A stretch of DNA of 64,000 nt from Escherichia coli. Lineage in GTDB: Bacteria; Pseudomonadota; Gammaproteobacteria; Enterobacterales; Enterobacteriaceae. A program made the position numbers and the translations under genes. The stretch is taken from NCBI RefSeq assembly GCF_024298765.1, contig NZ_CP101210.1, one strand, 5' to 3'. Below, piece by piece: positions 6,005 to 51,265 of the stretch; position 1 is the first letter of the stretch; each line of letters opens with the position of its first letter. Below the pieces are notes generated by a model, which had not been told where the DNA came from, made no database searches, and was given only the letters and a program-made list of their open reading frames with translations.

Positions 6005-6337
6005 TTAATTCTCATATTTAAAGTCGATGTTTATTTTGAGTGTTTCAATATTCACAGTGACTTCGCAACCATGCCAGAATGGCTTTTCTTGTGATTTAAA
6101 GTTATCCACAAACAAATTTCTTAGTTCCACCAAAAGATCTAAAAGTCTTTCACTGGCATCTGCGGTTTCAGTGATCCAATGTTGATTGCCCTGTTTATCT
6201 ACATAGTCATAAGTAAACTCACCACAGTCGCTTTCCGGTTCTAACTTTGCACACAGAATGATTTTGACTGCATCACTAGGAGTGATCGATAGCAACACCG
6301 AACCAATGTCATTATAAATATCCTGATCAGAACGCAT
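6005..6337 (-). CDS. Putative CdiI-type immunity protein for the adjacent CdiA-CT nuclease
   Basis: 110-aa ORF whose ATG (6337-6335) overlaps the TAA stop of the toxin ORF (TAATG coupling); small acidic protein, AT-rich; position typical of cdiI. Confidence 0.55.
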   Translation of the reverse strand: MRSDQDIYNDIGSVLLSITPSDAVKIILCAKLEPESDCGEFTYDYVDKQGNQHWITETADASERLLDLLVELRNLFVDNFKSQEKPFWHGCEVTVNIETLKINIDFKYEN

Positions 6338-9300: not shown

Positions 9301-9801
9301 ACTGGCACTCTGACTCTGCGTTGTCCCGGCCTCGCGGCGGTCGTGCGTTGTCTTACTGCTGCCAATGGTGAAGCCAATACCGCCGGTACCCATCAGACCG
9401 GATTTCTTCGTTTCCTTAAAGCGCCAGGACGTATCTGTACTGGTGGCAGCAAGAACATCAACATGGTTACCCGCCGCCAGTGACACATCCCGGTCAGCCA
9501 CCACATCCGAACCCTCTACCGTCAGGTTATCACCGGCGTTAACGGTCACGCGGTTCCCCGACAGCAGGGAGCCTGCTTCACGGGAGGCACTGTTCTCACT
9601 GATGGTGTGGGTGGTTTTCTTACTGAGAAAACCTCCGCTTTTTTTCTTCGTTTCCAGATAGTGATAGTCACTTTCTGTCGCCGTGGTCAGGGCGACATCA
9701 CGACCGGCATTCACACTGATATTGCCGGTTGCGGTAACGGATGACGCAACAGCGGTGATACGCATACTGAAGAGCATTCCGTATAAAGATTCAGCTGGCA
9801 A
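6337..9801 (-). CDS. cdiA: 5'-truncated CdiA (contact-dependent inhibition toxin) fragment: FHA-repeat region, pretoxin-VENN, C-terminal nuclease toxin domain
   Basis: Gly/Ser/Thr-rich filamentous-haemagglutinin-type repeats; [16 protein letters not shown]...AGKNVVENN pretoxin-VENN motif (VENN codons at 7231-7242); 297-aa CT with GHLIAS...[14 protein letters not shown] resembling the Serratia nuclease / Endonuclease_NS active-site region. No signal peptide or TPS domain; frame opens at a stop with TTG as first codon, no cdiB nearby. Confidence 0.8.
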
Positions 9802-13266: not shown

Positions 13267-15369
13267 CTAATTTGTAATTCTAAAAATCCGATCAACTGTT
13301 CTTAAAGTTGTCTCTCTATGTGCAATAATCACCCGGGTGATATTCATCTTTTTTATAGCAGCATTCACGAAACGTTCACTTTCTGTATCAAGAGAACTTG
13401 TAGCCTCATCCATAAATAATATTCCAGGTTTCCGGTATAAAGCTCGGGCAATGAATATACGCTGTTTTTGACCGCCGGAAAGACCTTCCCCCAGTTCACC
13501 TATTAACGTTTCATACCCCATTGGCATTTTCATTATCACATCATGAATATGACTTGCTCTGGCACATTCTGTCATCCATTCGTCGTCTGTTTCTTCTGCA
13601 AACCCACAGATATTTTCACGAATTGATCCTGAAAATAGCCGGTCGTCCTGCATAACACAGGCTATCATACGGTGATAATTATTTATTCCAAGTTGACGTA
13701 TATCCGTGCCATTAACCAGTACTTTTCCACTATCTGGTTCAAACAGTCCACATAATACTTTCATTAATGTGGTTTTTCCGGCACCGGAGGCACCAGTTAT
13801 AGCCACACTTTCTCCCGGAGCCACAGACAAATTCAGACCACTGAATACCTGTGCTGACTGGCTGTCATACCGGTAGCTTAAATCAGTGGTTTCCAGTGAA
13901 ACCGGGCTCATGTCAGCAACGATTTCAATTTCCGGTTTCTTTTCTTCCTTTTCATGTAGTGCAATATCTGCAATGCGCTCATTATGCAGACTCATTATTC
14001 TCAGTTGAAGAAGAAAACTGGTCAGCGAAGCAACCCGATCCGAAAACTGCCCACGAAAAGAACCAAATGCCACAAACATCCCTATTGTCATCTGATTATC
14101 GATCACAAGGCTTGCACCCAGCCATAAAATCGCCACCTGATCACAGGCGGCAACAAAAGTATTTATCCCCCCGAAGAGCAAATCCATCCTGGTTAACTTA
14201 ATACCTGAATTGATCGCATCTATTTTCAGGTTAAGCCAGTGTGTTCCCCGAATCCCAGCCATACCCTGGATTTTTACCGTGGCAATACCATACAGGCTTT
14301 CCATAAAATAGGAGCTGGCCCGGGCCCCCCTGACAAGAGTTTCTTCCGATATTTGCCGGTAATAGCCGTATGTCACCAGACGAATAAGAACGTAAACCAT
14401 GGTAAAACCGAGCACTATCCAGGTAAGATATCCTCCATATAACAGCATCATCACAAAAACACCCACAACCATAATACTGTCCATGATTGCCCCAACAACA
14501 CAGGTGGTAAAGGTGGCCCTCAAAGTGTCAAGGGAGCCAAAACGCGACTGGATATCACCTAATTTACGGCGTTCAAAAAACGCCAGCGGCAGTCTGAGAA
14601 GATGGTTAAACAGACCCGACTGCCACTGTATATTGATGAGCGTGCTCATAACCAGTGAGGACCATGCACGCAGCATACTCACCGCGGCCCTGAGCAATAT
14701 AAAGAACATCAGGCCAGCAGAAATAAGCGTCAGCAGCCCTCTGTCCCCCGCCGGAATCGCATGATCCATAACCAGCTGAGTTCCCACCGGCATTACCAGA
14801 TTGATTGCTTCAATTACAACTGACAGACAGAAAATTTTCGCCAGTGTTCTTTTAATACCGTAAATACTGTTAATCAGTGAACGGAGACTTATGCGGGTCT
14901 GCTGGGTTTCCGCCAGGAATTCACTTCCGGGCCAGACCTCAAGTGCAATGCCCGTAAAATACCGGCTCATTTCCTCCCGACCGAGATATCTTCTGCCTCT
15001 GGCCGGATCATGCAGTACATAACGGTTACGCTTTACGCTGACCAGCACGACGAAGTGACTGAAATCCCAGTGGAGAATACACGGCATTTTGAGGGCACCA
15101 AGTTCATCCAGCTCCAGTGAAAGAGCCCGGGTGACCATCCCCAGCTGCTCCGCTATTCCATTGATTCCTGCAAGGTTTGCTCCACGGGCCGAGAGATTAA
15201 ACTTCCGGCGAAGAGATATCAGGTCAATATTCTTACCAAAATGACCGCATATCATTGCCAGGCAGGCCAGTCCACATTCAGCGGTCTCCGTCTGATGAAT
15301 AACCGGAACACGACGTCGCCAGCGCATATCAAGCTGATTTATAATTTGTCTGAAATTCCCGTTAGTCAT
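13267..15369 (-). CDS. mchF: Microcin ABC exporter with N-terminal C39 peptidase domain (CvaB/MchF family)
   Basis: C39 peptidase motif [15 protein letters not shown], six TM segments, Walker [13 protein letters not shown] signature LSGGQKQR. Track start 15387 is GTG; ATG at 15369 gives [10 protein letters not shown]. Confidence 0.9.
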
Positions 15370-19088: not shown

Positions 19089-19316
19089 TTAGCTACCGCC
19101 ACCAGCAGAAGAACTGGCACTACCACTTCCCACGGTCGAGCCAATTGCTGTTGTCAAACCGGCAGATACGGCTCCAACTACAACCCCAAGTGGACCACCA
19201 GGTATTCCGGCGAGAGCTCCAACAATAGCTGCAGCACCTGCAGCATTAGCTGAAGTCGCTGGCGCACCTCCCGCCCCGGAAATATATCTTAACTGTGATT
19301 CTGTTATTTCTGGCAT
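19089..19316 (-). CDS. mchB: Microcin H47 precursor
   Basis: 75-aa ORF MPEITESQLRYISGAGGAPATSANAAGAAAIVGALAGIPGG...GSGSASSSAGGGS: double-glycine leader, Ala/Gly-rich core and Ser-rich tail matching MccH47 as I recall it (recalled residue 2 is R, here P). Confidence 0.9.
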   Translation of the reverse strand: MPEITESQLRYISGAGGAPATSANAAGAAAIVGALAGIPGGPLGVVVGAVSAGLTTAIGSTVGSGSASSSAGGGS

Positions 19317-19343: not shown

Positions 19344-19553
19344 TTAACTTCCGTTTTTCCAGTCTGACCAGACCAGAATCCTTCGAATCCCATGAATCAG
19401 CTCAATAAAACCAAGAAATATTATAAAGCTTAGAAAAACGTCAACATAAGAATTCCCTTCGCCAACAATCCGAAGGGATGAAAGTGAAACCAATAAGATA
19501 GTAATAGGTAAACTGAATATAGCCGTCAATTGGGACAGTTTTTTATAACTCAT
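19344..19553 (-). CDS. mchI: Microcin H47 immunity protein
   Basis: 69-aa hydrophobic two-TM peptide immediately upstream of mchB; ATG start. Confidence 0.85.
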   Translation of the reverse strand: MSYKKLSQLTAIFSLPITILLVSLSSLRIVGEGNSYVDVFLSFIIFLGFIELIHGIRRILVWSDWKNGS

Positions 19554-23878: not shown

Positions 23879-24554
23879 TAAAAAAGTCCGTCTTCTGCTT
23901 ACCTGTTTATTTTTCTATCGCTAAGAAAACATAATTAATATTATTTTTATGTGAGCTTATGCACAAAAATAACAAAGTATCTTATCTTCTGGTAGAGATA
24001 CAGGATACAGTTTGTAGGAGCTTTCTTTTTTTGAACAATGATTTGCAGGACAGTTATGCCAACCTAGCAGAATCAGTATCACAACAATAAATGACAGATC
24101 ATACCTGAAATTTGAATTAACAGGCATCATGAATGTCAATAGTCTAAGCGGTTACTACTTACATCGCTTGCATAAATACTAAACACTGACTAGAAAAGTA
24201 TTGGATAACCCCGTCACTAAAAGTAACACTTCGGTTATTTGCTCGGAATGTATCAACGCCAAGATTGTTAGCCGTTACGCCTTATATCACTGGCGCTGAC
24301 AAATGTTTCTTTTCTAATTTACTGAACCGGCGCAGACTTACAGAAAAACACTCCGGCACCGGTGTAATGCCAGTTATAAACAATGTGAATGGAATGACGA
24401 ATCAGTCAGGAAAGAGCTACAATCTGCTGGCTGACCGGAGAGGGTCAGCAGGAAGATGAACGGTAATGTCGCCAGCACCAGGGGCAGGGCCGGGTTCCAC
24501 AATACCAGCGCCGGCATTTTGCACATTGCCAGCGTACCGGCATCACAACACGTT

Positions 24555-24859: not shown

Positions 24860-25567
24860 TCAGAACGGTCCTGCAGATCCGGGATAGCCGGGATTACCGG
24901 CGAGGCAACGGGCTTCCGGATCGCACACACCACGACGATCGCGGGCGAAATCACTGAACGCCCAGATCAAATCTTTGAGGATGTCTTCGCAGTCCGGTGA
25001 ACGACTGTCCAGCACCACATCCCGGGTTATCTGTTTCTGGTACGGTGCCGCTTCCCCCGGTGACGCGAAGCCCAGTACGTTGCTCCAGGCATCCAGAATC
25101 AGCCGGTCCAGTTCGGGGCCGTCGAAATACTCCTGTCTGACGCACAGCACCACGTGGTATTCCGGCTTTTCCGGATGACGGGTCAGGAGCCAGCAAAGGT
25201 CGCGTCCGGGTTTCGCATTCATCAGCGCACTGACGGTTTCGATAAAATCCATACCAAACCAGGTCTGTCTGCTGTTGAAGGCGTTGTCATGTTCCCACGG
25301 CAGACGAAGCAGGATCCGCCGTATCCGTGAGCCGGACTGCTCACGCAGCGCACGCTCAAGGACGCCGATGACTTTGTTCTGATAAGATGGCCAGAAGGGT
25401 GCCAGGCTATAGTCGAAATAAGGAATAGCATTCATAAGATATGTTCCGTTATGCGCAGCCCACAATGCGTCCTGCCCGTGAATGAGCTGACGTGTTATGG
25501 CTTGCGGATGAGATTGATGGAATAAGTGAAGAACTGAAGCAGAACGGGAAGATAAGGGACAGAACAC
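24860..25567 (-). CDS. Inovirus Gp2-family (YfjJ/YagK-like) protein, paralogue 1; start uncertain
   Basis: Similarity to the two other paralogues in the window; track start is GTG, first in-frame ATG is at 25435 (MNAIPYFDYS...). Confidence 0.55.
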   Translation of the reverse strand: MFCPLSSRSASVLHLFHQSHPQAITRQLIHGQDALWAAHNGTYLMNAIPYFDYSLAPFWPSYQNKVIGVLERALREQSGSRIRRILLRLPWEHDNAFNSRQTWFGMDFIETVSALMNAKPGRDLCWLLTRHPEKPEYHVVLCVRQEYFDGPELDRLILDAWSNVLGFASPGEAAPYQKQITRDVVLDSRSPDCEDILKDLIWAFSDFARDRRGVCDPEARCLAGNPGYPGSAGPF

Positions 25568-36563: not shown

Positions 36564-37382
36564 ATGCAATTAGCCAGTCGTTTTGGTCATGTAAATCAGA
36601 TCCGTCGGGAGCGCCCACTGACACGCGAAGAACTGATGTACCACGTCCCGAGTATTTTTGGAGAAGACCGGCACACCTCCCGCAGTGAACGGTATGCGTA
36701 CATTCCCACCATCACCGTCCTGGAAAATCTGCAGCGGGAAGGCTTTCAGCCGTTCTTCGCCTGCCAGACCCGTGTGCGCGACCAGAGCCGCCGGGAATAT
36801 ACCAAACATATGCTGCGTCTGCGGCGGGCCGGACAGATAACTGGTCAGCATGTGCCTGAAATTATTCTGCTCAACTCCCATGACGGTTCATCCAGCTACC
36901 AGATGTTACCCGGATATTTTCGTGCCATTTGTACCAATGGACTGGTCTGCGGTCAGTCTCTGGGAGAATTGCGTGTTCCACACCGGGGAAATGTGGTGGA
37001 GAAAGTTATTGAAGGGGCTTACGAGGTGGTGGGCGTGTTTGACCGGATAGAGGAGAAGCGTGATGCCATGCAGTCGCTGGTCCTGCCGCCACCGGCACGC
37101 CAGGCGCTGGCACAGGCGGCACTGACTTACCGTTATGGTGACGAACATCACCCCGTCACCACCGCCGACATTCTGACGCCACGACGCCGGGAGGATTACG
37201 GTAAGGACCTGTGGAGTACTTATCAGACCATCCAGGAGAATATGCTGAAAGGCGGAATTTCCGGTCGCAGTGCCAGAGGAAAACGTATCCACACCCGTGC
37301 CATTCACAGCATCGACACCGACATTAAGCTCAATCGCGCATTGTGGGTGATGGCAGAAACGCTACTGGAGAGCCTGCGCTGA
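36564..37382 (+). CDS. DUF932-like protein (YfjQ/YafZ-like)
   Basis: 272-aa ORF in the conserved position upstream of the anti-restriction/radC genes; family assignment from memory. Confidence 0.55.
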   Translation: MQLASRFGHVNQIRRERPLTREELMYHVPSIFGEDRHTSRSERYAYIPTITVLENLQREGFQPFFACQTRVRDQSRREYTKHMLRLRRAGQITGQHVPEIILLNSHDGSSSYQMLPGYFRAICTNGLVCGQSLGELRVPHRGNVVEKVIEGAYEVVGVFDRIEEKRDAMQSLVLPPPARQALAQAALTYRYGDEHHPVTTADILTPRRREDYGKDLWSTYQTIQENMLKGGISGRSARGKRIHTRAIHSIDTDIKLNRALWVMAETLLESLR

Positions 37383-37647
37383 TGCAATCTGTCCCTGAAG
37401 GCGTGATTCAGGCACCAGAATCACCCGACGCCCCGGAGAACTCAGTCTGTGCAGACTGAGTACAGGCAATGGCATCTTCTGGCCATCCGTCTGTGACCGG
37501 AACGGTTACGCGTACGGCTGTCCGGAATTTCAGCCGAATATCATTCATCCCTGATATTGCCGGGTCTCACGGTCAGTGATGAACGTGATGTTGTCAGCCC
37601 CCGGCCTTTATTTCCTCTCATTTATACACATTGTAAGGATTTCACTC

Positions 37648-38127
37648 ATGAAAATCGTTTCTCAGAACACAACTGCTCTTTCTTCAGCCACAGCACCAGG
37701 GAATAACCAGCCCCAACTGGTTGCTACTCCCGTCCCTGATGAACAACGTATCAGCTTCTGGCCGCAGCATTTTGGCCTCATTCCACAGTGGGTGACCCTG
37801 GAGCCCCGTGTCTTCGGCTGGATGGACCGTCTGTGCGAAGACTACTGCGGGGGCATCTGGAATCTGTACACCCTGAACAACGGCGGGGCATTTATGGCCC
37901 CCGAACCGGATGATGATGATGACGAAACATGGGTACTGTTCAATGCCATGAACGGTAACCGCGCTGAAATGAGCCCGGAAGCCGCCGGCATTGCCGCCTG
38001 TCTGATGGCGTACAGCCATCACGCCTGTCGTACAGAGAATTATGCCATGACGGTTCATTATTACCGGCTGCGGGATTATGCCCTGCAGCATCCGGAATGC
38101 AGCGCCATTATGCGCATCATCGACTGA
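37648..38127 (+). CDS. KlcA/ArdB-type anti-restriction protein (YfjX/YafX-like)
   Basis: ATG at 37648 preceded by TAAGGAT Shine-Dalgarno (track ORF starts upstream at 37576); family-like FWPQHFGLIPQW segment. Confidence 0.7.
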   Translation: MKIVSQNTTALSSATAPGNNQPQLVATPVPDEQRISFWPQHFGLIPQWVTLEPRVFGWMDRLCEDYCGGIWNLYTLNNGGAFMAPEPDDDDDETWVLFNAMNGNRAEMSPEAAGIAACLMAYSHHACRTENYAMTVHYYRLRDYALQHPECSAIMRIID

Positions 38128-38619
38128 ATGGAGGCAGGGACAATGCAGCAGCTTTCCTTTCTGCCCGGAGAGATGACACCCGGCGAGCGCAGCCTCATTC
38201 AGCGGGCCCTGAAAGCCCTGGACCGCCATCTTCATGAACCCGGCGTGGCCTTCACCTCCACGCATGCGGCACGGGAATGGCTGATTCTGAACATGGCGGG
38301 ACTGGAGCGTGAAGAATTCCGGGTGCTGTATCTGAATAACCAGAATCAGCTGATTACCGGTGAAACCCTCTTCACTGGCACCATCAACCGCACAGAAGTC
38401 CATCCCCGGGAGGTGATTAAACGCGCCCTGTACCACAATGCCGCTGCCGTGGTGCTGGCGCACAATCACCCGTCCGGTGAAGTCATCCCCAGCAAGGCAG
38501 ACCGCCTTATCACGGAACGTCTGGTACAGGCACTGGGCCTAGTGGATATCCGGGTGCCGGACCATCTGATAGTCGGTGGCAGCCAGGTTTTCTCCTTTGC
38601 CGAACATGGTCTGCTTTAA
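38128..38619 (+). CDS. RadC-like JAB-domain protein (YeeS/YfjY/YkfG family)
   Basis: 163-aa ORF with JAMM-type HNHPSG motif; alternative start at 38143 after a GGAGG Shine-Dalgarno. Confidence 0.85.
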   Translation: MEAGTMQQLSFLPGEMTPGERSLIQRALKALDRHLHEPGVAFTSTHAAREWLILNMAGLEREEFRVLYLNNQNQLITGETLFTGTINRTEVHPREVIKRALYHNAAAVVLAHNHPSGEVIPSKADRLITERLVQALGLVDIRVPDHLIVGGSQVFSFAEHGLL

Positions 38620-38681
38620 CCCGTCACAACCACATCACACCTGTTTTCACTTTTATCTTCTGTCTTCAGAGGTATCCCATT

Positions 38682-38903
38682 ATGAAAATTATCACCCGTG
38701 GTGAAGCCATGAGTATTCACCAACAACATCCGACATCCCGTCTTTTTCCGTTCTGTACCGGTAAATACCGCTGGCACGGCAGTGCTGAGGCGTATACCGG
38801 TCGTGAAGTGCAGGATATTCCCGGTGTGCTGGCTGTATTTGCAGAACGCCGTAAGGACAGTTTTGGCCCGTATGTCCGGCTGATGAGCGTCACCCTGAAC
38901 TGA
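38682..38903 (+). CDS. YeeT-like protein (DUF987)
   Basis: 73-aa ORF in the conserved position between the radC-like gene and the TA module. Confidence 0.6.
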   Translation: MKIITRGEAMSIHQQHPTSRLFPFCTGKYRWHGSAEAYTGREVQDIPGVLAVFAERRKDSFGPYVRLMSVTLN

Positions 38904-38921
38904 ATCAGAAAGGGGATTCTG

Positions 38922-39550
38922 ATGAGCAGCATTATCACCATCACAGTGTATACGCTGGATGAACTTTCCTGCCCGGTACGGGGAAAAGCCCGCGACGGGT
39001 ACCGTCAGCATCATGCTGACAGCAACTGGTATGAAAACGTGTATGAGGACTTCAGGGCGGTCTGTGACATTTTCGGAATTGACCTCCGCCAGCGCGTTTT
39101 CCGGCTCAGCCAGGTTTATGGAAGAGCCGTGCATCTGGTTCAGCGGATGCTGCAGCCAGGGGGACGGAGCCTGTTTTGAAGGACGCTGGCACTGGCAGCC
39201 GGCGACAGCCCGGATAATCCGGAAGTATGCCCCACAGGAGCATGAACTCCATCGTATCGCGGATGCCCTGCAGGCGGTGCAGAAACGTAACTTCTGGCAA
39301 CTGCAGGCTGAAATCCACCACCGGGGACGTTACTGCCATCCGTTATCACTGTTACCCGGAACAGTCCGACTGGTCAGGCTATGACAGCCGATGCGGAAGC
39401 CGCTGTCAGCGAAGCCCTGCGCGACCTGGCCTTCTGGCTGTACCGTCAACTGGAAAACGAGTACGACCAGATGACCTCAGACGCCGCTGTGGATGAGGCC
39501 ATTCTCATCAATGCATACATCTTCACCGAAACCGGTCAGCGCACCGGCTG
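38922..39550 (+). pseudogene. Frameshifted gene remnant between yeeT-like gene and cbeA
   Basis: Coding potential passes through three overlapping frames (38922-39179, 38959-39384, 39383-39550) with no single long ORF. Confidence 0.3.
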
Positions 39551-39600
39551 ACCTGTCATCGTTAAACCATTCTTAACCACTTTTCAGAGAGGATTTTATC

Positions 39601-39969
39601 GTGTCAGACACACTCTCCGGGATAACTCATCCCGACGACAATCACGACCGCCCCTGGTGGGGGCTTCCCTGCACAGTGAGGCCCTGTTTTGGCGCCCGTC
39701 TGGTGCAGGAGGGTAACCGCCTGCATTACCTTGCCGACCGCGCCGACATCAGAGGCCGGTTCAGCGATGCGGATGCATACCATCTGGACCAGGCCTTTCC
39801 GCTGCTGATGAAACAACTGGAACTCATGCTCACCAGCGGTGAACTGAATCCCCGCCATCAGCATACCGTCACGCTGTATGCAAAAGGGCTGACCTGCGAA
39901 GCCGACACCCTCGGCAGTTGTGGTTACGTTTATCTGGCTGTTTATCCGACGCCCGAAACGAAAAAGTAA
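39601..39969 (+). CDS. cbeA: CbeA/YeeU-family antitoxin (type IV TA)
   Basis: 122-aa ORF MSDTLSGITHPDDNHDRPWWGLPCTV...; very close to K-12 YeeU as recalled; GTG start. Paralogues (yafW, yfjZ) exist, so the symbol is by best resemblance. Confidence 0.8.
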   Translation: MSDTLSGITHPDDNHDRPWWGLPCTVRPCFGARLVQEGNRLHYLADRADIRGRFSDADAYHLDQAFPLLMKQLELMLTSGELNPRHQHTVTLYAKGLTCEADTLGSCGYVYLAVYPTPETKK

Positions 39970-40059
39970 ACCACCGGAATAACCTTCTGCTCCGGCCAGG
40001 TGTTTTCACCACGCCACTCTCCCCATAATTTAATCTCTCATATCAGGAAAATCTTCAGT

Positions 40060-40470
40060 ATGAAATTATTACCCGACACACATGTACGGGAGGCATCGTG
40101 CTGCCCGTCTCCCGTCACCATCTGGCAGACACTGCTCATCCGTCTGCTGGACCAGCACTATGGCCTCACACTGAATGACACACCGTTCGCTGATGAACGT
40201 GTGATTGAGCAGCATATTGAGGCCGGCATTTCACTGTGCGATGCGGTGAACTTTCTCGTTGAAAAATACGCACTGGTACGTACCGACCAGCCGGGATTCA
40301 GCGCAGGAGCCCCGTCGCAGTTAATCAACAGCATCGATATTCTCCGGGCCCGCCGGGCAACAGGCCTGATGACACGTAATAACTACAGAATGGTAAATAA
40401 CATTACCCTGGGTAGCATCCGGGGGCGAAACGATGAAACTTTCCCTGACGCTGGAAGCCGACAGCATTAA
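40060..40470 (+). CDS. cbtA: CbtA/YeeV-family toxin (type IV TA), C-terminus divergent
   Basis: ATG at 40060 gives [11 protein letters not shown]...[62 protein letters not shown] matching YeeV-family; last ~20 residues differ from the K-12 sequence I recall. Confidence 0.8.
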
Positions 40471-40855
40471 CGTGCAGGCACTGAACATGGGGCGCATTGT
40501 CGTTGACATTGATGGTGTAAATCTCGCTGAACTGATTAACAAGGTCGCTGAATACGGTTATTCACTCCGCGTGGTGGATGAACGTGACGCTACCGAAACA
40601 CCGGCGACTTCTGCCAGCTCTCATCAGTTGCCGGAAGACAATACAGTGATACAGAGCGTGATGCCATTAACCACTGAAACAGCGCTGGATATCCTCATTG
40701 CGTGGCTGCAGGACAATATCGACTGCGGGTCCGGAATTATTTTCGACAACGATGAGGATAAAACGGATTCGGCAGCACTGCTGCCCTGTATTGAACAGGC
40801 CAGGGAGGATATCCGTACCCTGCACCAACTGCAACTTCTGCACCAGAACCGGTGA
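40433..40855 (+). CDS. Hypothetical protein downstream of cbtA (YeeW position)
   Basis: 140-aa acidic ORF, ATG start, overlaps cbtA 3' end by 38 bp. Confidence 0.4.
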
Positions 40856-40939
40856 ATCTCACTCACCAGACTTCATTCTCCTGACGCCAGCCTGAACAGA
40901 GCTGGCGTTTTCGTTTATAAACAGAAAGGAAACCCCATA

Positions 40940-41725
40940 ATGTCATATATCACAATCCCCCACCCGAACGCGGTCAACGGACATACAGCCGTTATCTGTT
41001 CCACAAGTATCAGACACATCCTGGCTGTACGAAAGAGTACACTGCTGCAAATCGACACGCTTATCCGGCAACTGACAGAAATCTCAGCACTGACGGAAAG
41101 TATTGGCGGTAAAGCCGCCCCGGACTGGGCGATGAAACAGAATTTTCGCTGTGGTTGCTGGCTGATGGAGAAACCAGAAACAGCAATGAAAGCCATTACC
41201 CGGAATCTTGACCGCGAAATCTGGCGTAACCTGATGCAGCGTTCCGGGATGCTTTCCTTAATGGATGCACAGGCACGTGATACATGGTACAGGTCACTGG
41301 AATATGATAATTTTCCGGAAATCAGTGAAGCGAACATTCTGAGCACATTTGAACAACTGCACCAGAATAAGGATGAAGTGTTTGAGCGGGGGGTGATCAA
41401 CCTCTTCAAAGGGCTGAGCTGGGATTACAAAACCAACTCACCCTGTAAATTTGGCAGTAAAATTATCGTCAACAATCTGGTGAGGTGGGACCAGTGGGGA
41501 TTTCATCTTATCAGTGGAATGCAGGCAGATCGCCTGGCTGACCTGGAAAGAATGTTGCATCTGCTCAGCGGTAAACCGATCCCCGACAACCGGGGAATAT
41601 CACCATTAATCTGGATGACCACATACAGTCCGTTCAGGGTAAAGGACGCTATGAAGATGAGATGTTCATCATTAAATACTTTAAGAAGGGAGCTGCACAC
41701 ATCACTTTCAAAAGGCTGGAGCTGA
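40940..41725 (+). CDS. Hypothetical island-end protein (DUF4942-like, tentative)
   Basis: 261-aa ORF with ATG start; last gene before the att remnant. Confidence 0.45.
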   Translation: MSYITIPHPNAVNGHTAVICSTSIRHILAVRKSTLLQIDTLIRQLTEISALTESIGGKAAPDWAMKQNFRCGCWLMEKPETAMKAITRNLDREIWRNLMQRSGMLSLMDAQARDTWYRSLEYDNFPEISEANILSTFEQLHQNKDEVFERGVINLFKGLSWDYKTNSPCKFGSKIIVNNLVRWDQWGFHLISGMQADRLADLERMLHLLSGKPIPDNRGISPLIWMTTYSPFRVKDAMKMRCSSLNTLRRELHTSLSKGWS

Positions 41726-41891
41726 TTGACAGAATTAACGATATAATAGCCAGGCACTTTCCTTCTGTGCTCTCAGCCTGACCCCGAGTTTGATTCCCTT
41801 TCGATATCAAAAGGGACTGCGGGTACAAAAGAGGGTACATCTTTCACCAAACCAAACAAAATAAACCAATATCAACATGATAGAAGCATTC

Positions 41892-41913
41892 TTCGATTCC
41901 GAGTCCGGCACCA
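41892..41913 (+). repeat. 3'-terminal fragment of tRNA-Phe (att-site remnant); not an intact tRNA gene
   Basis: TTCGATTCCGAGTCCGGCACCA matches the T-arm/acceptor 3' end of E. coli tRNA-Phe with one G fewer than I recall; upstream sequence is not tRNA-like. Confidence 0.6.
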
Positions 41914-41924
41914 AATTCATATAA

Positions 41925-41952
41925 ACGGACCTCCACGGAGGTCCGTTTTTCG
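41925..41952 (+). terminator. Rho-independent terminator (native pheU downstream terminator)
   Basis: 10-bp perfect stem ACGGACCTCC/GGAGGTCCGT with 2-nt loop, then TTTTT. Confidence 0.55.
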
Positions 41953-42529
41953 TTTCAGGACGCCACGATTTAAGCGTCCTGCCGCCAAATCAATTCTACC
42001 GAACTCAACCAGATTCTCCCCACATCACCAGCAATTTACGGGCATATTCCAATTCGGGAAAATTTGTTTCTGAGCTATAGCGCTGACTGACGTGAAATGT
42101 CGTGCGGCCCCGTGATGCTGTTGAACGTCAAATGACGTCATCAGGAGCGTAACGCACCCATAAAGCACAACATCGGGCAGAACGCCAACTGATGAGATTT
42201 TCTGAATAAGAACAAAGAGAAATGTATCAGTCCGTTTGCTCATGCAAAGACTAACAATCCATTAAAATAGTAAGCGCTCCGGACAATTTTTCATGGATTA
42301 TTTTCTGAACATTTTTCTTTGGCAAAGATGATGAATTTTGATGGTAAGGAAAATTACTTCTGGTTCTCAGTAAAATCCTTTCGTAATACTATGTAATCAA
42401 GAAGTTTATGGCGGGTAAAAATAACGTCCTACATTCACCAATAATATGTAAATAAACCCATCTATAGATGGAAAAAATAGGTTATGGCAATTATCATTGC
42501 ATCATTCCCTTTTCGAATGAGTTTCTATT

Positions 42530-44068
42530 ATGCAACAACCTGTAGTTCGCGTTGGCGAATGGCTTGTTACTCCGTCCATAAACCAAATTAGCCGCAATGG
42601 GCGTCAACTTACCCTTGAGCCGAGATTAATCGATCTTCTGGTTTTCTTTGCTCAACACAGTGGCGAAGTACTTAGCAGGGATGAACTTATCGATAATGTC
42701 TGGAAGAGAAGTATTGTCACCAATCACGTTGTGACGCAGAGTATCTCAGAACTACGTAAGTCATTAAAAGATAATGATGAAGATAGTCCTGTCTATATCG
42801 CTACTGTACCAAAGCGCGGCTATAAATTAATGGTGCCGGTTATCTGGTACAGCGAAGAAGAGGGAGAGGAAATAATGCTATCTTCGCCTCCCCCTATACC
42901 AGAGGCGGTTCCTGCCACAGATTCTCCCTCCCACAGTCTTAACATTCAAAACACCACAACGCCACCTGAACAATCCCCAGTTAAAAGCAAACGATTCACT
43001 ACCTTTTGGGTATGGTTTTTTTTCCTGTTGTCGTTAGGTATCTGTGTCGCACTGGTAGCGTTTTCAAGTCTTGAAACACGTCTTCCTATGAGTAAATCGC
43101 GCATTTTGCTCAATCCACGCGATATTGACATTAATATGGTTAATAAGAGTTGTAACAGCTGGAGTTCTCCGTATCAGCTCTCTTACGCGATAGGCGTGGG
43201 TGATTTGGTGGCGACATCACTTAACACCTTCTCCACCTTTATGGTGCATGACAAAATCAACTACAACATTGATGAACCGAGCAGTTCCGGTAAAACATTA
43301 TCTATTGCGTTTGTTAATCAGCGCCAATACCGTGCTCAACAATGCTTTATGTCGGTAAAATTGGTAGACAATGCAGATGGTTCAACCATGCTGGATAAAC
43401 GTTATGTCATCACTAACGGTAATCAGCTGGCGATTCAAAATGATTTGCTCCAGAGTTTATCAAAAGCGTTAAACCAACCGTGGCCACAACGAATGCAGGA
43501 GATGCTCCAGCAAATTTTGCCGCATCGTGGTGCGTTATTAACTAATTTTTATCAGGCACATGATTATTTACTGCATGGTGATGATAAATCATTGGATCGT
43601 GCCAGTGAATTATTAGGTGAGATTGTTCAATCATCCCCAGAATTTACCTACGCGAGAGCAGAAAAAGCATTAGTTGATATCGTGCGCCATTCTCAACATC
43701 CTTTAGACGAAAAACAATTAGCAGCACTGAACACAGAAATAGATAACATTGTTACACTACCGGAATTGAACAACTTGTCCATTATATATCAAATAAAAGC
43801 GGTCAGTGCCCTGGTAAAAGGTAAAACAGATGAGTCTTATCAGGCGATAAATACTGGCATTGATCTTGAAATGTCCTGGCTAAATTATGTGTTGCTTGGC
43901 AAGGTTTATGAAATGAAGGGGATGAACCGGGAAGCAGCTGATGCATATCTCACCGCCTTTAATTTACGCCCAGGGGCAAACACCCTTTACTGGATTGAAA
44001 ATGGTATATTCCAGACTTCTGTTCCTTATGTTGTACCTTATCTCGACAAATTTCTCGCTTCAGAATAA
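42530..44068 (+). CDS. cadC: CadC, membrane-integrated transcriptional activator of cadBA
   Basis: 512-aa ORF MQQPVVRVGEWLVTPSINQISRNGRQLTLEPRLIDLL... with N-terminal winged-helix DNA-binding region, single TM and periplasmic sensor. Confidence 0.95.
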   Translation: MQQPVVRVGEWLVTPSINQISRNGRQLTLEPRLIDLLVFFAQHSGEVLSRDELIDNVWKRSIVTNHVVTQSISELRKSLKDNDEDSPVYIATVPKRGYKLMVPVIWYSEEEGEEIMLSSPPPIPEAVPATDSPSHSLNIQNTTTPPEQSPVKSKRFTTFWVWFFFLLSLGICVALVAFSSLETRLPMSKSRILLNPRDIDINMVNKSCNSWSSPYQLSYAIGVGDLVATSLNTFSTFMVHDKINYNIDEPSSSGKTLSIAFVNQRQYRAQQCFMSVKLVDNADGSTMLDKRYVITNGNQLAIQNDLLQSLSKALNQPWPQRMQEMLQQILPHRGALLTNFYQAHDYLLHGDDKSLDRASELLGEIVQSSPEFTYARAEKALVDIVRHSQHPLDEKQLAALNTEIDNIVTLPELNNLSIIYQIKAVSALVKGKTDESYQAINTGIDLEMSWLNYVLLGKVYEMKGMNREAADAYLTAFNLRPGANTLYWIENGIFQTSVPYVVPYLDKFLASE

Positions 44069-44433
44069 GTAACTCCCGGATTGATTCATGCTCGGGAATA
44101 TTTGTTGTTGAGTTTTTGTATGTTCCCGTTGGTATAATATGTTGCGGCAATTTATTTGCCGCATGATTTTTATTACATAAATTTAACCAGAAGATGTCAC
44201 ATAACACATTGTAAATATTGAATGTTTATCTTTTCATGATATCAACTTGCGATCCTGATGTGTTAATAAAAAACCTCAAGTTCTCACTTACAGAAACTTT
44301 TGTGTTATTTCACCTAATCTTTAGGATTAATCCTTTTTTCGTGAGTAATCTTAGCGCCAGTTTGGTCTGGTCAGGAAATAGTTATACATCATGACCCGGA
44401 CTCCAAATTCAAAAATGAAATTAGGAGAAGAGC
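44069..44433 (+). promoter_or_regulatory. cadBA promoter/CadC-binding region
   Basis: AT-rich 365-bp intergenic region between cadC and cadB; by established knowledge carries Pcad with CadC and H-NS sites. Individual sites not mapped here. Confidence 0.4.
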
Positions 44434-45768
44434 ATGAGTTCTGCCAAGAAGATCGGGCTATTTGCCTGTACCGGTGTTGTTGCCGGTAATATGATGGGGA
44501 GCGGTATTGCATTATTACCTGCGAACCTAGCAAGTATCGGTGGTATTGCTATCTGGGGTTGGATTATCTCTATTATTGGTGCAATGTCGCTGGCATATGT
44601 ATATGCCCGACTGGCAACAAAAAACCCGCAACAAGGTGGCCCAATTGCGTATGCCGGAGAAATTTCTCCTGCATTTGGTTTTCAGACAGGTGTTCTTTAT
44701 TACCATGCTAACTGGATTGGTAACCTGGCAATTGGTATTACCGCTGTATCTTATCTTTCCACCTTCTTCCCAGTATTAAATGATCCTGTTCCGGCGGGTA
44801 TCGCCTGTATTGCTATCGTCTGGGTATTTACCTTTGTAAATATGCTCGGCGGTACCTGGGTAAGCCGTTTAACCACTATTGGTCTGGTGCTGGTTCTTAT
44901 TCCTGTGGTGATGACTGCTATTGTTGGCTGGCATTGGTTTGATGCAGCAACTTATGCAGCTAACTGGAATACTGCGGATACCACTGATGGTCATGCGATC
45001 ATTAAAAGTATTCTGCTCTGCCTGTGGGCCTTCGTGGGTGTTGAATCCGCAGCAGTAAGTACTGGTATGGTTAAAAACCCGAAACGTACCGTTCCGCTGG
45101 CAACCATGCTGGGTACTGGTTTAGCAGGTATTGTTTATATCGCTGCGACTCAGGTGCTTTCCGGTATGTATCCGTCTTCTGTAATGGCAGCTTCCGGTGC
45201 TCCGTTTGCAATCAGTGCTTCAACTATCCTCGGTAACTGGGCTGCGCCGCTGGTTTCTGCATTCACCGCCTTTGCGTGCCTGACTTCTCTGGGCTCCTGG
45301 ATGATGTTGGTAGGCCAGGCAGGTGTACGTGCCGCTAACGACGGTAACTTCCCGAAAGTTTATGGTGAAGTCGACAGCAACGGTATTCCGAAAAAAGGTC
45401 TGCTGCTGGCTGCAGTGAAAATGACTGCCCTGATGATCCTCATCACTCTGATGAACTCTGCCGGTGGTAAAGCATCTGACCTGTTCGGTGAACTGACCGG
45501 TATCGCAGTACTGCTGACTATGCTGCCGTACTTCTACTCTTGCGTTGACCTGATTCGTTTTGAAGGCGTTAACATCCGCAACTTTGTCAGCCTGATCTGC
45601 TCTGTACTGGGTTGCGTGTTCTGCTTCATCGCGCTGATGGGCGCAAGCTCCTTCGAGCTGGCAGGTACCTTCATCGTCAGCCTGATTATCCTGATGTTCT
45701 ACGCTCGCAAAATGCACGAGCGCCAGAGCCACTCAATGGATAACCACACAGCGTCTAACGCACATTAA
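44434..45768 (+). CDS. cadB: Lysine/cadaverine antiporter
   Basis: 444-aa polytopic APC-family permease directly upstream of cadA. Confidence 0.95.
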   Translation: MSSAKKIGLFACTGVVAGNMMGSGIALLPANLASIGGIAIWGWIISIIGAMSLAYVYARLATKNPQQGGPIAYAGEISPAFGFQTGVLYYHANWIGNLAIGITAVSYLSTFFPVLNDPVPAGIACIAIVWVFTFVNMLGGTWVSRLTTIGLVLVLIPVVMTAIVGWHWFDAATYAANWNTADTTDGHAIIKSILLCLWAFVGVESAAVSTGMVKNPKRTVPLATMLGTGLAGIVYIAATQVLSGMYPSSVMAASGAPFAISASTILGNWAAPLVSAFTAFACLTSLGSWMMLVGQAGVRAANDGNFPKVYGEVDSNGIPKKGLLLAAVKMTALMILITLMNSAGGKASDLFGELTGIAVLLTMLPYFYSCVDLIRFEGVNIRNFVSLICSVLGCVFCFIALMGASSFELAGTFIVSLIILMFYARKMHERQSHSMDNHTASNAH

Positions 45769-45847
45769 TTAAAAGTATTTTCCGAGGCTCCTCCTTTCAT
45801 TTTGTCCCATGTGTTGGGAGGGGCCTTTTTTACCTGGAGATATGACT

Positions 45848-47995
45848 ATGAACGTTATTGCAATATTGAATCACATGGGGGTTTATTTTAAAGAAGAACC
45901 CATCCGTGAACTTCATCGCGCGCTTGAACGTCTGAACTTCCAGATTGTTTACCCGAACGACCGTGACGACTTATTAAAACTGATCGAAAACAATGCGCGT
46001 CTGTGCGGCGTTATTTTTGACTGGGATAAATATAATCTCGAGCTGTGCGAAGAAATTAGCAAAATGAACGAGAACCTGCCGTTGTACGCGTTCGCTAATA
46101 CGTATTCCACTCTCGATGTAAGCCTGAACGACCTGCGTTTACAGATTAGCTTCTTTGAATATGCGCTGGGTGCTGCTGATGATATTGCTAACAAGATCAA
46201 GCAGACCACTGACGAATATATCAACACTATTCTGCCTCCGCTGACCAAAGCACTGTTTAAATATGTTCGTGAAGGTAAATATACTTTCTGTACTCCTGGT
46301 CACATGGGCGGTACTGCATTCCAGAAAAGCCCGGTAGGTAGCCTGTTCTATGATTTCTTTGGTCCGAACACCATGAAATCTGATATTTCCATTTCAGTAT
46401 CTGAACTGGGTTCTCTGCTGGATCACAGTGGTCCACACAAAGAAGCAGAACAGTATATCGCTCGCGTCTTTAACGCAGACCGCAGCTACATGGTGACCAA
46501 CGGTACTTCCACTGCGAACAAAATTGTTGGTATGTACTCTGCTCCGGCAGGCAGCACCATTCTGATTGACCGTAACTGCCACAAATCGCTGACCCACCTG
46601 ATGATGATGAGCGATGTTACGCCAATCTATTTCCGCCCGACCCGTAACGCTTACGGTATTCTTGGTGGTATCCCACAGAGTGAATTCCAGCACGCTACCA
46701 TTGCTAAGCGCGTGAAAGAAACACCAAACGCAACCTGGCCGGTACATGCTGTAATTACCAACTCTACCTATGATGGTCTGCTGTACAACACCGACTTCAT
46801 CAAGAAAACACTGGATGTGAAATCCATCCACTTTGACTCCGCGTGGGTGCCTTACACCAACTTCTCACCGATTTACGAAGGTAAATGCGGTATGAGCGGT
46901 GGCCGTGTAGAAGGGAAAGTGATTTACGAAACCCAGTCTACTCACAAACTGCTGGCGGCGTTCTCTCAGGCTTCCATGATCCACGTTAAAGGTGACGTAA
47001 ACGAAGAAACCTTTAACGAAGCCTACATGATGCACACCACCACTTCTCCGCACTACGGTATCGTGGCGTCCACTGAAACCGCTGCGGCGATGATGAAAGG
47101 CAATGCAGGTAAGCGTCTGATCAACGGTTCCATTGAACGTGCGATCAAATTCCGTAAAGAGATCAAACGTCTGAGAACGGAATCTGATGGCTGGTTCTTT
47201 GATGTATGGCAGCCGGATCATATCGATACGACTGAATGCTGGCCGCTGCGTTCTGACAGCACCTGGCACGGCTTCAAAAACATCGATAACGAGCACATGT
47301 ATCTTGACCCGATCAAAGTCACCCTGCTGACTCCGGGGATGGAAAAAGACGGCACCATGAGCGACTTCGGTATTCCGGCCAGCATCGTGGCGAAATACCT
47401 CGACGAACATGGCATCGTTGTTGAGAAAACCGGTCCGTATAACCTGCTGTTCCTGTTCAGCATCGGTATCGATAAGACCAAAGCACTGAGCCTGCTGCGT
47501 GCTCTGACTGACTTCAAACGTGCGTTCGATCTGAACCTGCGTGTGAAAAACATGCTGCCGTCTCTGTATCGTGAAGATCCTGAATTCTATGAAAACATGC
47601 GTATTCAGGAACTGGCTCAGAATATCCACAAACTGATTGTTCACCACAATCTGCCGGATCTGATGTATCGCGCATTTGAAGTTCTGCCGACGATGGTAAT
47701 GACTCCGTATGCTGCGTTCCAGAAAGAGCTGCACGGTATGACCGAAGAAGTTTACCTCGACGAAATGGTAGGTCGTATTAACGCCAATATGATCCTTCCG
47801 TATCCGCCGGGAGTTCCTCTGGTAATGCCGGGTGAAATGATCACCGAAGAAAGCCGTCCGGTTCTGGAGTTCCTGCAGATGCTGTGTGAAATCGGCGCTC
47901 ACTATCCGGGCTTTGAAACCGATATTCACGGTGCATACCGTCAGGCTGATGGCCGCTATACCGTTAAGGTATTGAAAGAAGAAAGCAAAAAATAA
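45848..47995 (+). CDS. cadA: Inducible lysine decarboxylase
   Basis: ATG at 45848 gives MNVIAILNHMGVYFKEEPIRELHRALERLNFQIVYPN..., 715 aa; track ORF begins 13 codons upstream. Confidence 0.95.
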   Translation: MNVIAILNHMGVYFKEEPIRELHRALERLNFQIVYPNDRDDLLKLIENNARLCGVIFDWDKYNLELCEEISKMNENLPLYAFANTYSTLDVSLNDLRLQISFFEYALGAADDIANKIKQTTDEYINTILPPLTKALFKYVREGKYTFCTPGHMGGTAFQKSPVGSLFYDFFGPNTMKSDISISVSELGSLLDHSGPHKEAEQYIARVFNADRSYMVTNGTSTANKIVGMYSAPAGSTILIDRNCHKSLTHLMMMSDVTPIYFRPTRNAYGILGGIPQSEFQHATIAKRVKETPNATWPVHAVITNSTYDGLLYNTDFIKKTLDVKSIHFDSAWVPYTNFSPIYEGKCGMSGGRVEGKVIYETQSTHKLLAAFSQASMIHVKGDVNEETFNEAYMMHTTTSPHYGIVASTETAAAMMKGNAGKRLINGSIERAIKFRKEIKRLRTESDGWFFDVWQPDHIDTTECWPLRSDSTWHGFKNIDNEHMYLDPIKVTLLTPGMEKDGTMSDFGIPASIVAKYLDEHGIVVEKTGPYNLLFLFSIGIDKTKALSLLRALTDFKRAFDLNLRVKNMLPSLYREDPEFYENMRIQELAQNIHKLIVHHNLPDLMYRAFEVLPTMVMTPYAAFQKELHGMTEEVYLDEMVGRINANMILPYPPGVPLVMPGEMITEESRPVLEFLQMLCEIGAHYPGFETDIHGAYRQADGRYTVKVLKEESKK

Positions 47996-48006
47996 TTAGC
48001 TCGTAC

Positions 48007-48037
48007 AAGGGAAGTGGCTTGCCACTTCCCTTTTTTG
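48007..48037 (+). terminator. Rho-independent terminator after cadA
   Basis: AAGGGAAGTGGC-TTG-CCACTTCCCTT stem-loop followed by TTTTTT, about 12 bp after the stop. Confidence 0.55.
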
Positions 48038-48053
48038 CTCATAAGGAGAACAC

Positions 48054-49511
48054 ATGAAAACACCCTCACAGCCGCGCGCGATATACTATATCGTGGCGAT
48101 CCAAATCTGGGAGTACTTCAGTTTTTACGGCATGCGTGCCTTACTCATTCTCTATCTCACCCATCAGCTTGGTTTTGATGATAACCATGCCATCAGCCTG
48201 TTCAGCGCATATGCTTCTCTGGTTTACGTTACCCCTATTCTCGGCGGCTGGCTTGCCGACCGCCTGCTCGGCAACCGCACTGCAGTGATTGCCGGCGCGC
48301 TGTTAATGACCCTTGGCCATGTGGTGCTGGGCATTGATACAAATTCAACCTTTAGCCTGTATCTGGCGCTGGCAATCATTATTTGTGGCTACGGTTTATT
48401 CAAATCAAACATCAGCTGTTTGCTTGGCGAGCTCTACGACGAGAACGATCATCGACGTGATGGCGGTTTTTCGCTGCTATATGCTGCGGGCAATATCGGT
48501 TCTATCGCCGCGCCCATCGCCTGCGGCCTGGCTGCTCAGTGGTATGGATGGCATGTTGGCTTTGCCCTTGCGGGAGGCGGCATGTTTATCGGTTTGTTGA
48601 TTTTCTTAAGTGGTCATCGTCATTTCCAGTCCACGCGTAGTATGGATAAAAAAGCGCTCACTAGCGTCAAATTTGCCTTACCAGTATGGAGCTGGTTAGT
48701 GGTGATGCTCTGTTTAGCCCCAGTATTTTTTACCCTGCTGCTGGAGAACGACTGGTCCGGATATTTGCTGGCGATCGTTTGCCTCATTGCAGCACAAATC
48801 ATTGCCCGCATGATGATCAAATTCCCCGAACACCGCCGTGCTCTTTGGCAAATTGTATTGTTGATGTTTGTCGGGACGTTGTTCTGGGTACTGGCACAAC
48901 AGGGCGGCAGTACCATCAGCTTGTTTATCGATCGCTTTGTGAATCGTCAGGCATTCAATATTGAAGTACCTACAGCACTATTCCAGTCGGTGAATGCTAT
49001 TGCGGTGATGCTCGCTGGGGTTGTTCTGGCCTGGCTGGCGTCGCCAGAAAGCCGCGGCAATTCAGCATTGCGCGTCTGGCTGAAGTTTGCCTTTGGCCTA
49101 CTGCTGATGGCTTGTGGCTTTATGTTGCTGGCATTTGATGCCCGACATGCAGCGGCTGGCGGTCAAGCGTCAATGGGCGTGATGATATCCGGGCTGGCGC
49201 TAATGGGCTTTGCTGAACTCTTTATTGACCCGGTGGCGATTGCGCAAATCACGCGTCTGAAAATGTCTGGCGTATTAACCGGTATTTATATGCTGGCAAC
49301 AGGCGCGGTCGCCAACTGGCTGGCAGGCGTCGTGGCACAGCAGACGACAGAGTCGCAAATTAGCGGTATGGCAATTGCCGCTTACCAGCGATTCTTTTCT
49401 CAGATGGGAGAGTGGACGTTGGCTTGTGTCGCGATCATCGTGGTATTGGCCTTTGCTACCCGTTTTCTGTTTAGCACGCCGACGAATATGATACAGGAGA
49501 GCAACGATTAA
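48054..49511 (+). CDS. dtpC: Dipeptide/tripeptide:H+ symporter (POT family), DtpC/YjdL
   Basis: 485-aa polytopic POT-family transporter in the cadA-lysU interval. Confidence 0.9.
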
Positions 49512-49747
49512 CTGTCGTAAAAACAATTGGTTATGAATAAATTAACTTTCAGTTTATCACACTAGCAAATCGAGATTAATAAGTCATTTAAACCATTTTT
49601 ATGGTTATTTATTAGTGATATCAACTTGAGGTAAGCGTTAGTTTCGATAAGATAAACTGAGTTATTAATAGTCGAGGCAGATAATACAGTGTACCGATCT
49701 GTCTCTTTATCTACGCTAAATTGAAAGCTGGATTTAGAGGAACCAAA

Positions 49748-51265
49748 ATGTCTGAACGAGAAACACGGGGAGCCAATGAGGCTATTGATTTTAACGATGA
49801 ACTGAGAAATCGCCGCGAAAAACTGGCGGCACTACGTCAGCAAGGTGTGGCGTTTCCCAATGATTTTCGCCGCGACCATACCTCTGACCAGTTGCACGAA
49901 GAGTTTGATGCGAAGGATAACCAGGAACTGGAATCCTTAAACATTGAAGTCTCGGTTGCTGGCCGAATGATGACCCGTCGTATTATGGGGAAAGCCTCCT
50001 TTGTAACGTTGCAGGATGTCGGTGGCCGTATTCAACTGTACGTTGCAAGAGATAGCCTGCCAGAAGGTGTTTATAACGATCAGTTTAAAAAATGGGATCT
50101 GGGTGACATTATCGGTGCCCGCGGTACGCTGTTTAAGACGCAAACGGGTGAGCTTTCCATTCACTGTACTGAGCTGCGCCTGCTGACTAAAGCACTACGT
50201 CCTTTACCAGATAAATTCCATGGTCTGCAGGATCAGGAAGTCCGTTATCGTCAACGTTATCTGGACCTCATCGCTAACGATAAATCCCGTCAAACGTTTG
50301 TTGTCCGTTCAAAAATTCTGGCCGCTATCCGTCAGTTCATGGTCGCTCGCGGCTTTATGGAAGTAGAAACCCCGATGATGCAGGTAATTCCAGGTGGAGC
50401 ATCTGCTCGCCCGTTTATTACCCATCATAACGCTCTGGATTTAGATATGTACCTGCGTATCGCGCCGGAGCTATATCTGAAACGTCTGGTTGTAGGTGGT
50501 TTTGAACGGGTATTCGAAATCAACCGTAACTTCCGTAATGAAGGTATTTCTGTTCGTCATAATCCTGAGTTCACGATGATGGAACTCTACATGGCGTATG
50601 CGGATTACCACGATTTGATTGAACTGACGGAATCACTGTTCCGCACTCTGGCACAAGAGGTACTGGGTACCACTAAAGTCACTTATGGCGAGCATGTGTT
50701 TGATTTCGGCAAACCGTTTGAAAAACTCACCATGCGCGAAGCAATCAAAAAATATCGTCCAGAAACCGATATGGCGGATCTGGATAATTTTGATGCTGCT
50801 AAAGCATTAGCTGAATCTATCGGAATTACGGTAGAGAAAAGCTGGGGGTTGGGACGCATTGTCACGGAGATCTTTGATGAAGTGGCAGAAGCACATCTGA
50901 TTCAGCCAACCTTTATCACGGAATATCCGGCAGAAGTGTCACCGCTGGCGCGCCGTAATGATGTTAACCCGGAAATCACCGACCGTTTTGAATTCTTCAT
51001 CGGTGGTCGTGAAATTGGTAATGGTTTTAGCGAATTAAACGACGCAGAAGATCAGGCTGAACGTTTCCAGGAACAGGTTAACGCTAAAGCTGCAGGTGAC
51101 GACGAAGCCATGTTCTATGACGAAGATTACGTAACTGCGCTGGAATATGGTCTGCCGCCAACCGCTGGTCTGGGTATTGGTATCGACCGAATGATTATGC
51201 TGTTTACAAACAGTCATACTATTCGCGACGTTATTCTCTTCCCGGCGATGCGCCCACTGAAATAA
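49748..51265 (+). CDS. lysU: Lysine--tRNA ligase, heat-inducible
   Basis: ATG at 49748 gives [33 protein letters not shown]..., 505 aa, class II aaRS motifs; track start is TTG upstream. Confidence 0.95.

Follow-up and report, generated by a model that had tools for sequence, protein, structure and literature searches.

CP4-LIKE MODULES AND AN OPTIONAL GENE

Two cryptic prophage elements of Escherichia coli K-12, CP4-44 (yeeS-yeeT-cbeA-cbtA) and CP4-57 (lfgA-lfgB-ypjJ-yfjZ-ypjF), are among the closest described systems with which the present locus can be compared. They share their backbone order with the window, by which is meant the whole stretch of 64,000 nucleotides of E. coli DNA that was analysed: an antirestriction gene, a RadC/JAB gene, a DUF987 gene, a gene for a CbeA-family antitoxin and a gene for a CbtA-family toxin. 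In neither K-12 element is there a gene between DUF987 and the antitoxin, the gap being 73 bp in CP4-44 and 37 bp in CP4-57. In the window this slot holds a broken coding sequence of ~630 bp, which runs from an ATG at 38922 to an ancestral stop codon at 39549-39551 (Table 1). Upstream is an intact DUF987 gene, preceded in the module by the RadC/JAB and antirestriction genes, and downstream is an intact gene of the CbeA/YeeU family. We regard the sequence as almost certainly a pseudogene without function, derived from a conserved accessory gene for a 214-aa protein that integrative elements carry, and it lies in the position, between the DUF987 and CbeA-family antitoxin genes, that this gene has in E. 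coli islands.

An earlier note on this DNA placed the remnant in the conserved backbone of the island and proposed that TBLASTN with intact homologues from CP4-44 and CP4-57 would locate the frameshifts. Such a search would find nothing. The gene is absent from both elements, and tblastn with the intact protein detects no 214-aa homologue in them, no match scoring below E = 2. This places the pseudogene in an optional insert of the module and not in the part that is conserved in K-12. Across complete E. coli genomes, the flanking module is matched at 13041 places but the gene itself at only 2760, a number that is a lower bound because the 70-nt megablast probe misses divergent alleles. These counts and the absence from K-12 are consistent with dispensability, and we infer both that the gene has lost its function here and that it can be dispensed with.

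Table 1. Coordinates, in the window, of the pseudogene, its parts, its neighbours and other island genes
Feature	Position	Strand	Basis or remarks
Pseudogene of 214-codon accessory gene	38922..39551	+	two deletions relative to the intact allele
Shine-Dalgarno-like AAGGGG, putative ribosome-binding site	38910..38915	+	from reading of the sequence; 6 nt 5' of native ATG
DUF987 (yeeT-like) gene, intact upstream neighbour, 73 aa	38682..38903	+	Pfam PF06174, E 4.7e-39
CbeA/YeeU-family type IV antitoxin gene, intact downstream neighbour, 122 aa	39601..39969	+	Pfam PF06154, E 3.2e-54
Segment 1	38922..39110	+	native start, codons 1-63, phase 0; 100% identity to L73 protein
5-bp deletion junction (AACGG absent)	39110..39111	+	N64 lost, codon of nearly invariant G65 broken, frame shifted
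Premature TGA	39177..39179	+	ends translation from native ATG; predicted product 85 aa (63 native + 22 out-of-frame)
Segment 2	39112..39343	+	ancestral codons 66-142, now phase 1; motifs CIWFSG..SQGDGACFEG and HRIADALQ
10-bp deletion junction (ACAGCATGGA absent)	39343..39344	+	conserved Y-S-M-D lost, including invariant M145; probably the older lesion
Segment 3	39345..39551	+	codons 147-214 and ancestral stop, phase 0 again; 4 residues unseen in 34 intact homologues
CbtA-family toxin gene	40060-40470	+	1-nt deletion (an A) near 40414 relative to L73 allele
Microcin H47 cluster	mchB 19089-19316, mchI 19344-19553, exporter mchF ~13267-15369	-	mapped from ACN002 annotation

ANATOMY OF THE BROKEN GENE

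The lesions were defined against an intact allele from E. coli L73, a 645-nt gene at the same position that encodes WP_045146861.1 (214 aa). When this protein is compared with the window by tblastn, residues 1-63 match at 38922-39110, residues 64-145 at 39106-39351 and residues 147-214 at 39345-39548, in frames 3, 1 and 3 along the window and with a joint E of 3.7e-109; the same protein detects no second copy of the gene in the window. These collinear matches are far beyond chance, and they confirm to the nucleotide the split, coding-like sequence of about 630 bp to which the earlier note had drawn attention. Its description as a sequence spread over three frames does not survive, as the homology comprises three segments in only two frames (phase 0, 1 and 0) and the third-frame ORF at 39227-39496 does not resemble the family. 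The open stretches that overlap one another in 38922-39553 are 38922-39179 (85 aa, phase 0), 38959-39384 (141 aa, phase 1) and 39381-39551 (56 aa, phase 0).

Alignment of the DNA with that of L73 reveals exactly two indels inside the gene, of 5 bp and 10 bp, and both lie outside homopolymers. If the 15 nt are put back, an ORF of 214 codons is recovered whose product is identical to WP_045146861.1 at 201 of its 214 residues (94%). Homology to the 214-aa family thus extends over the full length, both in the tblastn coverage and in the repaired ORF. The window copy sits in the same slot between DUF987 and cbeA as the L73 gene but, without the 5 + 10 nt, cannot encode the full protein: the uninterrupted ORF of ~214 codons is broken by two frameshifting deletions and by the stop at 39177-39179. 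Intact homologues, a disruption that is reproduced in other genomes and a premature stop are together what defines a frameshift pseudogene, and all three are found here.

Because the deletions total 15 nt, the last segment has returned to its original frame, although a ribosome that starts at the native ATG is halted by the TGA at 39177-39179 and cannot reach it. A common frame for the first and last segments, with shifts that cancel, is also what would be seen if the gene were recoded by programme, a +1 and then a -1 shift giving a near-full-length protein in the manner of IS3 transposases, prfB and dnaX. The shift points are, however, deletion junctions relative to homologues that are single ORFs, and no slippery heptamer of the form X XXY YYZ is present at 39105-39116 (CTCAGCCAGGTT) or at 39338-39349 (ATCCGTTATCAC). 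Conserved residues are lost with the deletions. Nor is the arrangement conserved, since the second lesion differs in some alleles and is missing from others, and with three frames such a cancellation is expected by chance one time in three. The locus thus has neither the slippery motif nor the conserved shift of the IS3 transposase, prfB or dnaX type of gene, and the probability that it is recoded is vanishingly small.

The pieces left by the deletions could in principle have acquired lives of their own. The native ATG and the Shine-Dalgarno-like site are preserved, so that translation could still yield the 85-aa fragment, which includes 63 native residues and might retain some activity. At 39381-39551, the 56-aa ORF opens with an ATG that lies inside the ancestral frame and could likewise be translatable in principle. 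The locus would then be remodelled rather than dead, its functional small genes being the N-terminal product of 85 aa, which would hold two of the helices predicted for the ancestral protein, or the 56-aa C-terminal ORF. It speaks for such a reading that, where the 10-bp deletion is the sole lesion, the truncated product of 155 aa is represented by a cluster of 113 sequences. Yet every divergent homologue is one 214-aa ORF, no fragment alone matches any Pfam family, and the prediction for the whole chain is a single compact alpha/beta domain, so that 63 residues of it would probably not adopt their parental structure. The later lesions (-5 and -2) and the non-family substitutions form a pattern of relaxed constraint. 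Functional fragments are therefore very improbable. Nor are the three ORFs independently conserved small genes, the finding that in the view of the earlier note would have overturned its case; they are pieces of a single family of 214-aa ORFs found in Escherichia, Salmonella, Klebsiella, Citrobacter and beyond.

A Pfam scan of the three sub-ORFs, of the third-frame ORF at 39227-39496 and of a 172-aa antisense ORF at 38616-39134 gave no matches, and all of these ORFs are treated as incidental. A scan of 37300-40600 found no sigma-70-like promoters, and terminator-like sites occur there at chance level. Nothing in this interval thus suggests that the fragments are transcribed as units of their own.

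THE DELETIONS IN OTHER GENOMES

Frameshifts are a common artefact of long-read assembly, and one might suspect that the gene is really intact and that both frameshifts are errors of base calling. A sister allele, that of 24A16, does indeed show a 2-bp loss in a GGGGG run. The lesions in the window are of another kind, being losses of 5 bp and 10 bp of complex sequence (AACGG and ACAGCATGGA) and not homopolymer slips; the check for homopolymer error that had been recommended for this interval thus comes out in favour of real deletions, as neither lies in such a run.

The interval 38600-39700 of the window was compared by megablast with 5426 complete E. coli genomes. Three of these, ACN002, XB2 and CH4804, match it over its full length at 100% identity, and in each the identical sequence is flagged by PGAP in RefSeq as a 'frameshifted' pseudogene. 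A 70-nt probe laid over the 5-bp junction is matched in full and at 100% identity in the same three genomes only (3/5426), and a further 1928 records match at 80-95% identity, which is the band of copies that keep the five extra bases. Nissle 1917 is one of the strains whose copy still has the AACGG. A 70-nt probe over the 10-bp junction is matched at >=99% in 115 records, and the ten bases are retained in 1173.

The three strains differ in host, in country and in where the island is sited, and the window comes from none of them. XB2 is from a chicken in China and CH4804 from a human in Sweden; for ACN002, no host or country is recorded. Their copies have both deletions, the neighbouring genes and the island module as in the window and show no difference within the gene, but the window is identical to none of them in its flanks. 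ACN002 has an extra IS2 and 143 mismatches over 26 kb (23963-49917), the majority of them where the island approaches cadC or in the flanking chromosome. CH4804 shows 86 mismatches over 11.5 kb, and XB2 diverges after 41913, its module being in a different chromosomal context. On the cadC side, the divergence between the window and the published relatives that carry the identical gene is ~1%.

Besides the window, three complete assemblies of independent origin, which differ in host and country, thus carry the same lesions, and the 10-bp deletion recurs in ~115 genomes. That the gene is intact and misread is extremely improbable; both deletions recur in four independent sources, which for practical purposes rules out sequencing error. 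The expectation that resequencing might restore a single ORF fares no better, since the window and three assemblies carry identical lesions outside homopolymers. The locus is an ordinary frameshift pseudogene that is already recorded in public annotation. The characterization of it as a frameshifted gene remnant in a decaying island backbone stands, given the abundance of intact homologues, the ORF restored by 15 nt, the PGAP flags and four other degraded genes or remnants.

THE INTACT FAMILY

Among about 5.8 billion proteins searched, 2288 homologues were identified. Those of full length are nearly all of 214 aa and come from Escherichia, Salmonella, Klebsiella and Citrobacter, together with sequences attributed to Afipia and Pseudochelatococcus (alphaproteobacteria). 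Their conserved motifs are CIWFSGF.SQGDGACFEG, HRIADALQ..Q.RNF.QL, HRGRY.H.YSM and YTFTE.G.RFG, and the two deletions in the window strike G65 and the YSM motif. AlphaFold2, given an alignment of 34 sequences, predicts a single alpha/beta domain (mean pLDDT 88.9, pTM 0.82) with confidence along the whole chain.

An intact homologue had no matches in Pfam (2025 copy; E <= 0.01), NCBIfam (E <= 0.1) or PADLOC, and among the PHROGs it matched only phrog_5162, itself without an assigned function. No relative was found among solved structures, either by sequence or by Foldseek against the PDB; Foldseek against the viral structures of BFVD returned uncharacterized phage proteins only, the best at E 7.9e-8. 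Newer annotations name related copies, WP_045146861.1 among them, 'DUF8835 domain-containing', and a literature search under 'DUF8835' found no papers. In three RefSeq records (NZ_CM148325.1, NZ_AP045770.1 and NZ_CP082127.1) the PGAP product string carries a typing error, 'DUF8835 domain-containing pootine'.

Members of the family are accompanied by antirestriction, RadC/JAB and DUF932 or ParB_N proteins and by large helicases. At loci outside the Enterobacteriaceae (L010-L015, on metagenomic and alphaproteobacterial contigs) the gene lies in ICE-like clusters, with no CbeA or CbtA nearby. These clusters encode a ParB_N protein of 709 aa, an AAA_34/Helicase_C_4 helicase of ~1450 aa, an antirestriction protein and a DUF7146-Toprim protein. 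From this conserved gene company, the ancestral protein probably had an accessory role in the establishment of mobile elements or in anti-defence, rather than that of an antitoxin.

THE ANTITOXIN LABEL

The product name given by PGAP is the phrase used in COG2161/COG4118 for antitoxins of the Phd/StbD type. In the literature searched, this phrase was found only as a COG or RelB label of unrelated proteins. The 214-aa protein has in common with Phd/StbD-type antitoxins only the label and a place beside a toxin-antitoxin pair. It is more than twice their size, it has no Phd/YefM or RelB domain, belonging to no Pfam or NCBIfam family, and its 214 aa are to be set against the ~80-90 aa of such proteins. 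Neither the intact homologue nor any fragment matches the CbeA/YeeU type IV antitoxins (PF06154), and in other proteobacteria the family lies in ICE-like clusters without CbeA/CbtA. The 'antitoxin' label of the family is unsupported.

Natural in-frame fusions of the 214-aa protein to CbeA are encoded on several contigs of E. coli, one of them a chromosome of 4.66 Mb; the products have 342-343 aa and match PF06154 (P0003, P0006-P0012, P0014-P0016 and others). In the one fusion whose protein sequence was read (P0008), the stop codon has gone, along with part of the sequence between the two genes.

A functional link to the neighbouring pair could take another form, in which the 214-aa family is an unrecognized partner of CbeA/CbtA and its loss in the window and the change at the CbtA C-terminus are the joint decay of a three-part unit. 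The natural fusions to CbeA that circulate in E. coli count for the partnership, and the occurrence of the family without CbeA/CbtA in the ICE-like clusters of other proteobacteria counts against it. As for joint decay, the lesions are physically linked and their co-occurrence would be expected anyway. This three-part reading is very improbable.

PROPOSED HISTORY OF THE INACTIVATION

Sister alleles allow the order of events to be proposed. The allele of Ch1 has the 10-bp deletion alone; that of 24A16, shared with many avian-pathogenic strains, has the 10-bp deletion plus a 2-bp loss in the G5 run. The reconstructed protein of the window has four residues that are unseen in the 34 intact homologues, all of them downstream of the 10-bp deletion. 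One is T205I, at a position occupied by T in 33 of the 34.

The first hit was probably the 10-bp deletion at 39343|39344, which would have shifted the frame for the C-terminal third. The allele would then have spread to what are now ~115 sequenced complete E. coli genomes, gaining unusual substitutions downstream of the lesion. A later hit in the lineage of the window, the 5-bp deletion at 39110|39111, would have shifted the frame after codon 63. The second hits appear to be independent, -5 in the window lineage and -2 in another. We infer this order, the 10-bp deletion first, C-terminal drift next and the second hits after, solely from how widely each deletion is distributed. The alleles are also mosaic: in the alignment, columns 301-350 of the window resemble L73, and the 3' third is like that of the other pseudogene alleles, which points to recombination among island copies. 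Such mosaic recombination between alleles of the module complicates any simple story of lineages.

Indels that cancel in two alleles (5+10=15 in the window and 2+10=12 in 24A16) raised the question of selection to restore the C-terminus. The shifted stretches hold stop codons in both alleles, so the restored frame is a coincidence and not a rescue.

ISLAND CONTEXT AND WIDER DECAY

The window corresponds to region 4512200-4562117 of ACN002 in reverse orientation, in an island that carries the genes for microcin H47 and ends beside cadC (42530-44068). In ACN002, an IS2 of ~1.3 kb is inserted at the place equivalent to 23963-23968; the window is without it. Apart from IS2, the island is >=99.4% identical in the two, and the mismatches cluster near 25000-25500, at ~41500-42300 (the end of the island) and at 42500-49917 (cadC and the chromosomal flank). 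This suggests the same island in different strain backgrounds.

At the far end of the island (6337-9759 and 1-2431, as mapped from ACN002) there is a hemagglutinin-repeat (CdiA-like) gene without its N-terminus, with a YezG-family immunity gene adjoining it. Genes for a DEAD/DEAH helicase and for the M subunit of a type I restriction-modification system are also present in this region. A search of the whole window with Rfam at gathering thresholds found nothing.

The genes around the pseudogene had been described as intact. This is correct for DUF987 and the cbeA-like gene but not for cbtA, DUF5983, DUF4942 and the integrase, all of which are damaged in the same module, downstream of the pseudogene, so that the suggestion of ongoing decay in the backbone is correct. 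In the cbtA gene, the deletion swaps the last 7 residues for a 19-residue tail, and the ORF comes to overlap the start of the DUF5983 gene. PGAP treats this CbtA-like sequence as 'frameshifted' in ACN002 and CH4804 and as an intact protein of 136 aa (WP_059309235.1) in XB2. As the core is retained (118/125 aa), the predicted toxin may still be active. The DUF5983 gene is truncated, by the PGAP flags on identical or near-identical sequence, and falls within a zone of decay at 40433-42270. The DUF4942 ORF at 40940-41725 encodes 261 aa against ~280 aa for the 843-nt gene annotated as intact in L73, and is called 'frameshifted' by PGAP. Of the integrase, a tyrosine recombinase, there remains a remnant of 160 nt at ~42111-42270, just before cadC, again flagged by PGAP on identical or near-identical sequence.

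The locus thus documents, for a CP4-like island that carries microcin H47 and lies beside cadC, a stepwise erosion in which an older 10-bp deletion would have been followed by a lineage-specific 5-bp deletion. The latter could serve to mark the lineage of the island variant shared by ACN002, XB2, CH4804 and the window strain. The family to which the gene belonged is well conserved, confidently foldable (mean pLDDT 89) and uncharacterized, in integrative elements and in phages alike, and it would be worth studying in a strain with an intact copy.
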